Shown one piece after another: positions 1-60,796 of a DNA stretch of 64,000 nt. The first letter of the stretch is position 1; each line of letters begins with the position of its first letter. Origin of the DNA: Thermodesulfobacteriota bacterium (GTDB taxonomy: Bacteria; Desulfobacterota_D; UBA1144; Nemesobacterales; UBA2774); the NCBI GenBank assembly GCA_965216785.1, contig OZ244197.1, positions 1,824,001 through 1,888,000 on the forward strand, written 5' to 3'. Under the pieces are notes generated by a model. It made no database searches and was not told the origin of the DNA. It saw only the letters and a list, made by a program, of their open reading frames with translations. Position numbers and translations under genes: made by a program.

Positions 1-63
1 CGCTATGGTCTCTATGCCTTTAGGACTTAGGGTTAAAGCTACGCGACCTCTATTGAATCCCAT
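1..63 (-). CDS. N-terminal fragment of a hypothetical protein running off the window (MGFNRGRVALTLSPKGIETIA...)
   Basis: ATG at 63-61 on the minus strand preceded by an AAGGAG RBS; open to the window edge. Confidence 0.55.
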   Translation of the reverse strand, partial: MGFNRGRVALTLSPKGIETIA

Positions 64-128
64 ATTTAACTCCTTAAATACTCTTCATGTATATAAGGGA
101 AAAAACAGAGGGTTTTTAAAGGGGGGTT

Positions 129-1034
129 TTATAATTCGTTCATTTCTTTCTTTAAGTTCTTTTTAGCAGCTACTTCTAATTGACTTATTCTAGTTACAGA
201 TATCTTTAATTCCTTCGCAGCTTCTGTCTTGTTAAAACCTTTGAAATACAACAATTCTATCACTTTTCGCTGTTGATCTGTAAGTTTCATTAATTGATTT
301 TTTAGGTATTCCAGATCATTTATCAGAAAGATATCTTCCTCTAGATGAAAAGTATTATCATCAAACTCTTCAGGAATACCTTTCTGGAGTTCACCAAGTT
401 GATATCTGATGCTGTCTTTGACTCGGAATGGTAACTTTTCTAAGTCTTCCAGGAGAGAAAAGAGCATTGAATCCTTACTTGTATCAAATGCATTTCTTAG
501 AGTACTCTCAAATTCTTCTTGTAATAGTTCTTCTGGTAAGTCTTGTATATCTTTATGAAAAAGAAACTTTACTTCTCGTTCATGCTTTATATAGACACCA
601 TATCTCTTGGATACTTTGGCAGTTGCATATCTGAGTTCATCCAATAATTGTCTATCGTCGTCAAGTATTCGTCTGAATCTGGGATAACCGTATTTTGGAT
701 ACTCCTTTTCGAGGAACTTTAATATATTTCTCCATCGAGTGATGTATTCAGGAGTGCACATCACCCGTATAGCAAACATGGTATCCTTAGAAGAGTCAGT
801 TATATCTTGGACGTAATATTCATTTTGTGTGCCGAAATATTGATCAATGATTTCAGCAGCTATATCTAATATTTTTCCATTCAGAGATTTATTTGAATCG
901 ATACACTTATCCTTTGAAATGACTACAGCCTTTTCATTTTCGAATACCCTAATCTCAAATTTATCCAAAGTTTGGGCAATAGGTTCCGCTCTTTTCCGAA
1001 AATTCTTAACTTCAAGCTCACTTGCAGTAGGCAT
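129..1034 (-). CDS. Sigma-70 region 4 domain protein (sigma factor-like), probably mobile-element encoded
   Basis: C-terminal LTDQQRKVIELLYFKGFNKTEAAKELKISVTRISQLE is a sigma region-4 HTH; N-terminal ~230 aa unrecognised; AT-rich. Confidence 0.7.
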   Translation of the reverse strand: MPTASELEVKNFRKRAEPIAQTLDKFEIRVFENEKAVVISKDKCIDSNKSLNGKILDIAAEIIDQYFGTQNEYYVQDITDSSKDTMFAIRVMCTPEYITRWRNILKFLEKEYPKYGYPRFRRILDDDRQLLDELRYATAKVSKRYGVYIKHEREVKFLFHKDIQDLPEELLQEEFESTLRNAFDTSKDSMLFSLLEDLEKLPFRVKDSIRYQLGELQKGIPEEFDDNTFHLEEDIFLINDLEYLKNQLMKLTDQQRKVIELLYFKGFNKTEAAKELKISVTRISQLEVAAKKNLKKEMNEL

Positions 1035-1189
1035 TGTATTAAGTGTTCCTTTTAGTGACCAAATAGGTGTCCTTTCTGGTTATAAATACTCTACATATTC
1101 TAAATATACAAGTGTATTTGTAGGTGGAAATGTTTAATGTTCTTAGATAAATACTATGATTTGAGATACTTAGTAGTATACGTTCAATC

Positions 1190-1231
1190 GGATTAGGAAT
1201 CCTGCGCTCTATCCTGCTGAGCTACGGGGAC
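1190..1231 (-). pseudogene. 5' half of tRNA-Arg(CCT), truncated in the 3' strand of the anticodon stem (probable att junction)
   Basis: Minus strand GTCCCCG TA GCTC AGCAGGATA GAGC G CAGGA TTCCTAA TCC then GATTGAAC; no variable loop, T-arm or acceptor 3' strand follows. Confidence 0.85.
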
Positions 1232-1291
1232 TGTTTAGTTCTTCTAGAGGCTTATATTAATAACAGAATTTAGCGGCTTCATCAATAGCTT

Positions 1292-1648
1292 TCAGCCAAG
1301 TAGTGTAAGTATATTCCCGGCGGGGTCTTTGAGATGCGCGAGTGTTCCTCCCCAGTCTTGCTTTGTCGGGGGCCCTGTGAATTCAACGCCTTTTTCTGTT
1401 AGGTCTTTGTATACTGCATCTATGTCATCGACCTGAAGGGACATTCCTACAAACCGTCCGACAAGAGCTTTTCCTTCCTCATCGTTTTCAGCGACTTGCT
1501 CAAGCCCGAGGCTCGGGCCTCCTATGTCAAACTCGGCCCATCCGAGCGCGGGTTCTTTGTACTTAACAGGAAGCTCCAGAGTGTTTTCATAGAAATCGCA
1601 AGCGCTCTCCCAATCCCGGACAAATACTCTTACCGCGTAAAGTTTCAT
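1292..1648 (-). CDS. VOC/glyoxalase-bleomycin resistance family protein
   Basis: 118 aa; FYENTLEL, LQVDDIDAVY, WGG..AHLKDPAGN VOC motifs. Confidence 0.88.
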   Translation of the reverse strand: MKLYAVRVFVRDWESACDFYENTLELPVKYKEPALGWAEFDIGGPSLGLEQVAENDEEGKALVGRFVGMSLQVDDIDAVYKDLTEKGVEFTGPPTKQDWGGTLAHLKDPAGNILTLLG

Positions 1649-12995: not shown

Positions 12996-14135
12996 TTGGA
13001 CGTCCTTTCGTTATTGAATGACCTTCTTTTCGATTATACCCTTCGTACCGTAGCGCTGGGCTCAGCCGTTCTGGGTATAGTGAGCGGGGCGCTTGGCTCC
13101 TACGCTGTTTTGCGCAAGCAGAGTCTTCTAGGGGACGCTATGTCTCATGCCGCGCTCCCAGGTATTGCCATCGCATTTCTACTAACCGGAAGCAAAGTCT
13201 CGCTTGTTCTCATACTTGGGGCGGCTATCGCAGGCTGGGTAGCTACGCTCATTATTATGAGCATTGTTCGAACGACAAGAATAAAATATGACACCGCGCT
13301 CGGCATGATTCTATCCGTATTCTTCGGATTCGGCCTTGTGCTTCTCACCATTATCCAAAAACGACCCGACGCCACTCAGGCCGGACTGGATAAATTCCTC
13401 TTTGGCCAGGCCGCGGCCCTATTGGAGCGGGACGTAATAACAATGGCTGTCCTTGGGGCGGTTGCGATAGCCACGATGCTGGTATTCTGGAAGCAGTTTA
13501 AGCTCTTAAGCTTCGATCCAGATTTTGGCGCCACTCTGGGTTTCCCAATGCGGTTTCTCGACGTAGTGCTTACGACTCTTATTGTTATCGCCATAGTCAC
13601 AGGGCTTCAAACAGTGGGAGTCGTGCTCATGAGCGCGATGATCGTCGCACCGGCTTCCGCCGCTAGGCAGTGGACCGACCGTTTGGGCCCTATGATATTT
13701 TTATCGGCCGCTTTCGGAGCATTGGCGGGGGTATCGGGAGCTCTTCTGAGCAGCAGTATATCGAGGCTCCCTACAGGTCCCACAATTGTGCTTTGCGTAA
13801 GCGTGATAGTCGTAATATCGATTTTCCTGGCTCCTGCACGGGGTCTTGTTTGGAGCTGGCTGCGTGAGAGAAGGAACAGGGGGAAGCTTCGTCTTGAAGG
13901 TATGCTGGAGGATCTGTACTCACTTGCCCTTCAGCATAAAGATCCCGGGCACGCTCACCCTGTGTCGGTTCTCAGGCTAATGAGCGCGGACAAAGGAGGG
14001 GTGGACAATAGCCTCCAAAAACTCGAGGAGCAGGGGTTTGTGCGCCGTGTAAAATCGGAAGAATGGGCGCTTACGAGGAAAGGTGTTGAGCAGGCAAGGC
14101 AAATAATAAAACTAGGGGTCGGCGGCGGACAATGA
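12996..14135 (+). CDS. troC: Metal ABC permease (TroC/MntC) with C-terminal winged-helix-like extension
   Basis: DAMSHAALPG ABC-3 motif; soluble tail ending LEEQGFV...WALTRKG. Confidence 0.9.
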   Translation: MDVLSLLNDLLFDYTLRTVALGSAVLGIVSGALGSYAVLRKQSLLGDAMSHAALPGIAIAFLLTGSKVSLVLILGAAIAGWVATLIIMSIVRTTRIKYDTALGMILSVFFGFGLVLLTIIQKRPDATQAGLDKFLFGQAAALLERDVITMAVLGAVAIATMLVFWKQFKLLSFDPDFGATLGFPMRFLDVVLTTLIVIAIVTGLQTVGVVLMSAMIVAPASAARQWTDRLGPMIFLSAAFGALAGVSGALLSSSISRLPTGPTIVLCVSVIVVISIFLAPARGLVWSWLRERRNRGKLRLEGMLEDLYSLALQHKDPGHAHPVSVLRLMSADKGGVDNSLQKLEEQGFVRRVKSEEWALTRKGVEQARQIIKLGVGGGQ

Positions 14136-59754: not shown

Positions 59755-59831
<77 letters not shown>

Positions 59832-60025
59832 ATTATTTCAGTTGCTTGCGCCGATTACACTTTATTGAATTCCAACCGTAAAAAATGATGTTCATATATA
59901 ACAGCTATATAGTTCTTGACTTTGGTATACCCCTATATTAGAATCGGATATAAAATGTTTGCTCCTTCTGACGGCTGAAATTCATAGTTTTCTTGGATCT
60001 ACTTCTACATCTGCTTACAACATAA

Positions 60026-60730
60026 ATGGGAGGCGGTCCTATGCGTTACTTATTAATCTTTGCTTTGGTTTTTTTATTCATCGGCTGCTCGAAAAACACC
60101 CATACTGAGCACACTCCCAGTGAGACTTCAGGATTATCCCAAACAATAGATGTCGGACCAGATGAACCGATTGAGTTGTCTTTTCAACACAAACTTCCTA
60201 TGGAGGGAGAAGTAACTTTCAGGGCCCCTTTCGCAGTGGCTAATGTGCCCAATAACAAAGGTGTTTTGACTCCTATCATGATTGGGTTTTCGATTGACGG
60301 CGATAAAGCATCTGAATATTATGCTGAAATTCAAGCAAAGGTATCAGAAGGCACAAGGCCTATTTCGGTAGGTTTTGAGGTCACATCTAAAACAACATAT
60401 GGTGAAGCCCTTGAAAAGGTGCAAACTGAAAGTGTGGAAGTCCCCGGACAATGCATTGTAGGATTTGATTTTTTAACCGGGGGCACTATATCTTCCGGCG
60501 AGCTTGAATGTATGCTTCGTATTGTTAATATCTCATCATATCTAACGCGGGATTCAGGCGGAACACCGCTTCACGGCCCTCTTGACCCTGACTGTCATTC
60601 ACACTGGGGTATCGGAACAACAAGTTGCCACTGTGAAACTGATGATTGTTGTGATGAGGGTGAAAAATGTGTGTGTAATGTATCTAAAGAAACTCGTTGT
60701 AGCGGTACTAAATTCTGTTGGTGTGATTGA
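60026..60730 (+). CDS. Lipoprotein with Cys-rich C-terminal domain (likely start ATG 60041)
   Basis: GGAGG before MRYLL; lipobox FIGC; 10 Cys in the last ~45 aa. Confidence 0.72.
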   Translation: MGGGPMRYLLIFALVFLFIGCSKNTHTEHTPSETSGLSQTIDVGPDEPIELSFQHKLPMEGEVTFRAPFAVANVPNNKGVLTPIMIGFSIDGDKASEYYAEIQAKVSEGTRPISVGFEVTSKTTYGEALEKVQTESVEVPGQCIVGFDFLTGGTISSGELECMLRIVNISSYLTRDSGGTPLHGPLDPDCHSHWGIGTTSCHCETDDCCDEGEKCVCNVSKETRCSGTKFCWCD

Positions 60731-60740
60731 TAAATTAGCT

Positions 60741-60796
60741 CTCATAACCCCAAGGCCCAGGGTTCAAATCCTGCCCCCGCTACTAATAATTTCAGT
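60741..60796 (+). repeat. Degenerate tRNA-fMet 3' fragment (attR-like)
   Basis: CTCATAACCCcAAGGcCcagGGTTCAAATCCTGCCCCCGCTACtAATaATTTCAGT. Confidence 0.88.

Follow-up and report, generated by a model that had tools for sequence, protein, structure and literature searches.

The window analysed here is the whole stretch of 64,000 nucleotides at C1:1,824,001-1,888,000 of a single-contig 3.12-Mb genome (window position equals genome position minus 1,824,000), and it opens inside an island whose junction with the host DNA falls at position 1190. At this junction, 42 nt on the minus strand are identical to nt 1-42 of tRNA-Arg(CCT) (blastn E 5.6e-18 against the 3.12-Mb genome). They comprise the acceptor 5' strand, the D arm, the 5' anticodon stem, the CCT loop, and 3 of the 5 bases of the 3' stem. 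The initial annotation had accurately described this perfect 5' half, which stops three bases into the 3' anticodon stem and then runs into AT-rich DNA (30-39% GC). No tRNA was called at the fragment by ARAGORN, and the fragment together with the next 33 bases yields no cloverleaf fold. On the host side lies a predicted tRNA promoter that points through the fragment into the island. Its ad hoc score of 8.3 corresponds to about the 95th percentile of random genome stretches, and similar DNA is also found upstream of the tRNA in the relatives G002 and G023. The features of both island ends are collected in Table 1. A tRNA fragment of another kind, also reported in the initial annotation, is real as well: 23 nt of tRNA-fMet (nt 53-75, a 3' fragment) lie about 1 kb downstream of the gene (window 59755-60783), forming a small relic, and no integrase match was found near it.

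Table 1. Features of the tRNA-Arg(CCT) island and of its two junctions (window positions, or genome positions where preceded by C1)
Feature	Position	Strand	Evidence or remark
Island part in the window	1..1189		
Island interior, 18,180 bp	C1 1,807,010-1,825,189		
301-aa island gene, C-terminal sigma-70 region 4 helix-turn-helix	129..1034	-	PF04545 E 1e-9
Paired direct repeat, predicted integrase arm-type sites, window arm	1055..1072	-	18-nt pattern
Displaced 5' fragment (nt 1-42) of tRNA-Arg(CCT), host-promoter junction	1190..1231	-	Sequence identity
48-bp direct repeat (6-nt leader plus tRNA nt 1-42)	1190..1237	-	42 + 6 identical bases
Predicted host tRNA promoter, TTGATG-17-TATTAA	1257..1285	-	Prediction only
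Host flank: glyoxalase-family gene, also upstream of the tRNA at the G002 empty site	1292..1648	-	
Excisionase-like gene (HTH_17 protein)	C1 1,823,694-1,823,885	-	Outside window
Rep-like gene	C1 1,823,189-1,823,674	-	Weak match; outside window
367-aa tyrosine integrase	C1 1,807,022-1,808,125	-	PF00589 E 2.4e-37
Second pair of the arm-type repeat, inside the integrase 3' end	C1 1,807,065-1,807,082		Outside window
IHF-consensus match, the only exact one in the island, 10 nt before the rebuilt tRNA	C1 1,807,020-1,807,032	+	Sequence prediction; outside window
Second copy of the 48-bp repeat, far end of the island	C1 1,806,968-1,807,015		Outside window
Complete rebuilt tRNA-Arg(CCT)	C1 1,806,935-1,807,009	-	Outside window

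The far end of the island lies outside the window and carries a complete tRNA-Arg(CCT) gene whose first 42 nt are those of the fragment. It is the only tRNA-Arg(CCT) among the 45 genes that ARAGORN finds genome-wide, and a run allowing introns at relaxed threshold returned noise only. Both the fragment (1825231-1825190) and the complete gene (1807009-1806935) are on the minus strand, with the fragment upstream, and their identity runs 6 nt further upstream, resulting in a 48-bp direct repeat whose copies are 18,222 bp apart. The GC content of the 18,180 bp between fragment and gene is 38.6%, versus 46.0% for the genome, and the drop is confined between the two repeats. The 3' half and the integrase that the initial annotation proposed to look for are both present at the far end of the island, and the first of its two alternatives, a replacement 5' half at the other end of the element, corresponds to what is found there. 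Its statement that the tRNA gene was left unrepaired holds for the junction at 1190 but not for the gene itself, of which an intact copy stands at the far end.

The integrase is co-oriented with the complete tRNA-Arg(CCT), its stop codon lies 12 nt before the tRNA, and its gene is uninterrupted. It retains all six catalytic residues (R208, K233, H293, R296, H319, and Y328) and matches the phrog_1 integrase model, with Xer and integron models scoring far below their cut-offs. Its start is overlapped by a 101-aa Cys- and Tyr-rich ORF (L001:2604-2909, minus strand) for which no Pfam, NCBIfam, PHROGs or PADLOC match was obtained. At the opposite end, next to the excisionase-like and Rep-like genes, the 301-aa protein with a sigma-70 region 4 is likely a regulator judging from its sequence; sigma models score below cut-off on it. 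The cargo, encoded on both strands outside the window, is mainly devoted to Mg2+ and other ion transport and to metabolism. It includes MgtE, two CNNM/CBS proteins, a RimK-like ligase, an AstE/AspA protein, and a Zn protease, as well as MscS, a diadenylate cyclase, a CorA fragment, an NmrA-like protein, an HTH_3 protein, and an AAA_13 ATPase. The latter is a 760-aa ABC-type ATPase (L001:3044-5326, plus strand; PADLOC PDC-S06 E 1.5e-72) with a central CPFC and a C-terminal RRYHH, which we take to resemble RloC-type anticodon nucleases, a candidate label. The CorA fragment is a truncated cargo gene of 113 aa, N-terminal in origin, at the end of the MscS operon (L001:16116-16457). No virion gene and no type IV secretion or conjugation gene was detected among 19 ORFs of the island and flanks scanned with Pfam and 7 scanned with PHROGs, these scans covering ORFs of at least 60 aa and leaving aside overlapping alternative ORFs.

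The organization of the island ends recalls an attachment site of the lambda type. Exactly two copies of the 18-nt paired repeat are present in the genome, one in each arm of the island: the first precedes the rebuilt tRNA by 55 nt, and the second follows the fragment by 117 nt. When 2 mismatches are allowed, the sole additional matches are at both island ends of a paralogous integrase with 52% identity. The block of identity between the two tRNA copies spans the anticodon loop and ends 3 nt beyond it. Three host genes belong to the IHF/HU family, and the sequence matched beside the core is the consensus recognized by IHF. Among loci of related integrases, 6 of 46 co-oriented ones and 8 of 58 head-to-head ones have an exact match to this consensus at most 70 nt from the tRNA, on its integrase side (shuffle means 0.1). 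With respect to the integrase, every such match is on one and the same strand, and none is on the opposite one. With one mismatch the counts rise to 14/46 and 30/58 for shuffle means of about 2.4, although a value of 13 was obtained in one shuffle of the first set. The island has in common with lambda-type systems the paired direct repeats on either arm, the IHF-consensus match next to the core, and the excisionase-like gene. The differences are that the sites are here predictions from sequence and that no phage structural or conjugation gene is present among the 19 ORFs. By analogy with lambda-type systems, the paired repeats and the IHF match may be assigned arm-type and DNA-bending roles, respectively, as predictions.

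Sites devoid of the island are found both in a relative and in closely related strains. Of 40 relatives searched for the tRNA, 39 gave a match, and the same-genus G002, a relative without the element, holds an empty site with, in order, omdA, the glyoxalase gene, a 100% identical tRNA, and an fn3 gene. On the upstream side this site is similar to the DNA preceding the fragment, and on the downstream side to the DNA following the complete gene. At the strain level, contigs from 8 of the 24 listed sequencing runs were compared, and the empty site was found in three of them. In X5 and X6 (study P2) and in X8 (study P4), exactly 18,222 bp are skipped, with 48 letters that fit either side. In X2-X4, the island forms one 18,234-nt unitig, and the repeat forms one of 48 nt whose depth is about double that of the flanks; these three runs come from one sample, possibly the source of the assembly, and hence are not independent of it. 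X1 covers the island in several pieces, and X7 has scattered short pieces only. In X2-X4 the island has a depth of 1.1-1.2 times the mean of the flanks, and in X1 its depth is uneven; these values describe contig depth and not copy number. No excised circle or attP junction appears in these contigs, which could not display one because the 48-bp repeat exceeds the 31-letter assembly words.

These data bear on two rival explanations of the locus. The first, raised in the initial annotation, is that the fragment is a decayed duplicate or an assembly chimera at 1190. The possible common origin of the assembly and X2-X4 speaks in its favor, but the perfect identity, the intact integrase, and the arm repeats at both ends all argue against decay or misassembly, the exact empty site appears in two other studies and in G002, and the unitig graph agrees with the assembly in four runs. 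The exact empty-site joints and the unitig structure exclude this possibility. The second is modeled on the tRNA-dependent lysogeny of mycobacteriophages, in which a core of about 10 bp breaks the host gene, no tRNA is rebuilt, and the phage brings a separate whole tRNA (PMC10865867). As in that system, the host-side copy is broken upon integration and the element compensates, a tRNA of matching isotype being present at its end. Here, however, the core is 48 bp and not about 10, and through this repeat an element half and a host half are joined into a complete gene. Since they match the host empty site, the 3' half and the DNA beyond it do not belong to the element, and the rest of the genome is devoid of any orphan 3' half. 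The probability left for this second explanation is negligible.

Considering the features that are directly observed, namely both island ends and their 48-bp repeat, an intact tRNA and an uninterrupted integrase, and other strains in which the site is empty, the locus is very probably explained by the insertion of an 18.2-kb tyrosine-integrase island in the reversed, 5'-fragment polarity, with a rebuilt tRNA that is likely transcribed from element DNA. In this scenario, a circle bearing the first 42 bases of the tRNA would recombine with the host gene at the anticodon loop, thereby stranding the host 5' half behind the old promoter region and rebuilding a complete gene at the far end. As expected from the biology of tyrosine integrases, strand exchange would take place where the 7-nt anticodon loop meets its stem, the latter providing the inverted core sites. 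The paired repeats would serve as arm-type sites, IHF would bend the integrase-side arm, and the HTH_17 protein may act as excisionase. Excision would restore the original promoter-tRNA unit, and a complete tRNA gene is present in both states.

This last point concerns the second alternative of the initial annotation, according to which the tRNA gene is intact after excision only and recombination switches AGG decoding on. The copy behind the host promoter is indeed truncated, and an excisionase-like gene is present, but the integrated state holds a complete gene that is 100% identical to the uninterrupted one of G002. The switch is thereby refuted at the DNA level, and we give it hardly any credit. 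Its sole remnant is a possible difference in expression level between the integrated and excised states.

How the rebuilt tRNA would be transcribed under the 5'-fragment insertion that we favor is a separate matter. Since just 6 nt of host leader are duplicated, it appears to be cut from its own promoter. By contrast, a 5'-type element at tRNA-Arg(CCT) in G005 duplicates 87 nt of upstream DNA. Our first choice, put forward as a prediction and with a moderate degree of confidence, is read-through from the operon formed by the 101-aa ORF and the integrase, which is preferred because the ORF overlaps the integrase start and the integrase-tRNA gap is only 12 nt. The second choice, as predicted promoter of the rebuilt tRNA, is an extended -10 element that is weak and shares bases with the IHF match. 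It was favored at first and then downgraded: its score of 7.7, within the integrase tail, falls inside the random background (75th-90th percentile), and the motif also occurs beside 3'-type islands, which weakens it because such islands need no tRNA promoter. A scan for consensus promoters listed none before the rebuilt tRNA in the integrase tail.

Alternatively, the element might provide no working promoter, leaving the rebuilt tRNA silent or nearly so, with AGG read by tRNA-Arg(UCU) through wobble. A modified UCU anticodon is able to read AGG, a tRNA-Arg(TCT) is present in the genome, and both the 12-nt gap between integrase and tRNA and a promoter candidate within background would suit such a silent copy. 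Yet AGG represents 29.8% of arginine codons (12,045 AGG codons, 13.8 per 1000, counted over 2383 ORFs from a crude call), and the element retains a perfect 5' half. Moreover, the layout recurs at many tRNAs elsewhere, with 47 of 194 integrase rows co-oriented with the tRNA, and silencing would be costly. We therefore consider a silent copy unlikely.

Reversed polarity of this kind is documented, if uncommon. In the Islander collection, 159 of 3919 islands have a 5' tDNA fragment (Hudson, Lau and Williams, PMC4383910). This class shares with the present island a 5' fragment upstream of a complete co-oriented tRNA and a tyrosine integrase inside. The correspondence extends to a site centred on the anticodon, a length (18,222 bp) between 2 and 200 kb, an integrase that is neither Xer nor integron, and an empty target in relatives. 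No defining difference separates the two; the class looks commoner in this lineage (4/12 islands of this genome versus 4% in Islander), and closely related integrases use both polarities. A survey of thaumarchaeal elements likewise considers 5' recombination considerably less frequent, citing Zhao and Williams 2002 (PMC6563490). Among archaea, pTN3-like integrases use the 5' half and the rebuilt tRNA is expressed from the integrase promoter, an arrangement seldom met in bacteria (PMC8371274); for pTN3 itself, a supplementary legend reports that 41 bp are shared and that the integrase is split (PMC5495485). The severing of the rebuilt tRNA from its own promoter would be common to pTN3 and to the present island, whose layout would be compatible with expression from the integrase promoter. 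In pTN3/SSV-type elements, however, the att site lies within the integrase gene, which is split on integration, whereas here the whole 367-aa integrase ends 12 nt before the tRNA. The island is thus a real, precisely bounded case of a catalogued minority class and not a new kind of system.

Other islands of the same genome show that this polarity is not isolated. Twelve tRNA islands were counted, four of the 5' type (Pro-CGG, Leu-CAA, Ser-TGA, and Arg-CCT) and eight of the 3' type, when a fragment was required to lie at least 2 kb from its gene, co-oriented and on the expected side, with shorter, distant, and cross-isotype matches dropped. The proportion of 4/12 compares with 4.1% in Islander (p ~0.001), bearing in mind that the genome was picked for having one such island and that Islander applies other filters to other taxa. 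An integrase is found inside three of the four 5' intervals and is absent from that of Leu-CAA. The latter (L256, G000 C1 1,322,020-1,330,340) is an 8.2-kb interval running from a 64-nt 5' fragment to tRNA-Leu(CAA); it contains transposase-like ORFs and no integrase by family profile, and is probably a relic. Three islands are stacked at tRNA-Pro(CGG) (G000 C1 77,160-116,017), one of the 5' type upstream and two of the 3' type downstream, each with its own integrase; one integrase end overlaps a tRNA fragment on the opposite strand. Inside the 5'-type island of tRNA-Ser(TGA), a 3' fragment of tRNA-Thr(CGT) (G000 C1 1,606,810-1,606,858) lies 1.07 Mb from its gene, perhaps as a carried piece of another element.

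In relatives, the tRNA-Arg(CCT) gene is flanked by 5' fragments in G005, G026, G028, and G034 (the other end being unseen for the last three) and by 3' fragments in G004, G005, G007, G018, and G021. G005 thus has both, its tRNA-Arg(CCT) standing between a 5'-type and a 3'-type island with an integrase in each (L033:2902-3027 and 13425-13588). In L049 (G011) and L044 (G001), the leader upstream of tRNA-Arg(CCT) is nearer to the integrase tail of the present island than to the G002 host leader. No integrase was found in the fetched stretches of these two loci, whose leaders are, from their sequence, possibly scars of older 5'-type elements.

The 194 integrase rows were drawn from relatives, genome contigs, and metagenome contigs, with a few near-duplicates and the island's own integrase included and the suspected duplicate L096 excluded. 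Besides the 47 integrases just before a co-oriented tRNA, 59 are head-to-head with a tRNA, a tRNA lies upstream of 13, and no tRNA is close to the remaining 75. A 5' fragment is found upstream in 7 of the 47 co-oriented rows (this island, the genome's own tRNA-Ser, G019, G028, L105, L110, and L153); most of the remaining ones come without flank, and five with 10 kb of flank show no 5' fragment. Two rows, L108 and L192, are possibly mis-sorted as co-oriented, another tRNA lying just upstream. On the integrase side of the head-to-head rows, a 3' fragment is found in 11/59 and a 5' fragment in 0/59. A scan of viral contigs returned 10 distant integrases with 25-53% identity, the higher values over short stretches only, and none was used.

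A quick tree of 103 integrases implies 17 changes of the 5' label, 10 of them forced by starred branches. The statements on polarity made here are based on a careful tree of 31 rows and on an AU test. The careful tree implies 5 changes, all forced by starred branches, and 0 bootstrap trees give 1; its rows were chosen after viewing the first tree, it is unrooted, and it mixes target switches with polarity switches. Grouping all 14 5'-type rows, a label based on a confirmed 5' fragment in 7 and on layout alone in the rest, is rejected (p-AU 1e-76). One starred sister pair even uses the same tRNA-Pro(CGG) in opposite polarities. As polarity changes at least 5 times on the tree of 31 integrases, it is not a fixed family habit here. 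At the level of titles and opening lines of abstracts, the papers searched mention no repeated polarity flips.

A broader proposal combines labile polarity in this integrase family with a tRNA-Arg(CCU) supply tied to the integrase operon of the island and with island genes driven by the old promoter; taken together, we regard it as a speculative possibility, more doubtful than probable. The integrase, the arm repeats, and the IHF site would keep their order, and the captured half would alternate between the head-to-head 3' and the co-oriented 5' state. With every change to the 5' state, a host tRNA would come to lie at the end of an integrase transcript. In the present case, the supply of tRNA-Arg(CCU) for 30% of arginine codons would depend on an active integrase operon, and the regulator, excisionase, and replication genes of the island would come under the old tRNA promoter.

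Taken singly, the island is ordinary: it cleanly illustrates a catalogued minority layout, and close strains show its exact empty site. Two points are mildly interesting: the transcription of the captured tRNA and the readiness of the integrase family to flip polarity. For the second, the mixed polarities among close integrases constitute a natural series on re-orientation at a symmetric anticodon stem-loop. For the first, strains with and without the island offer a test case, as they allow asking whether a 5'-type island alters the level of the tRNA it captures. If tRNA supply were coupled to integrase transcription, a mobile element would thereby have some small regulatory grip on host translation.
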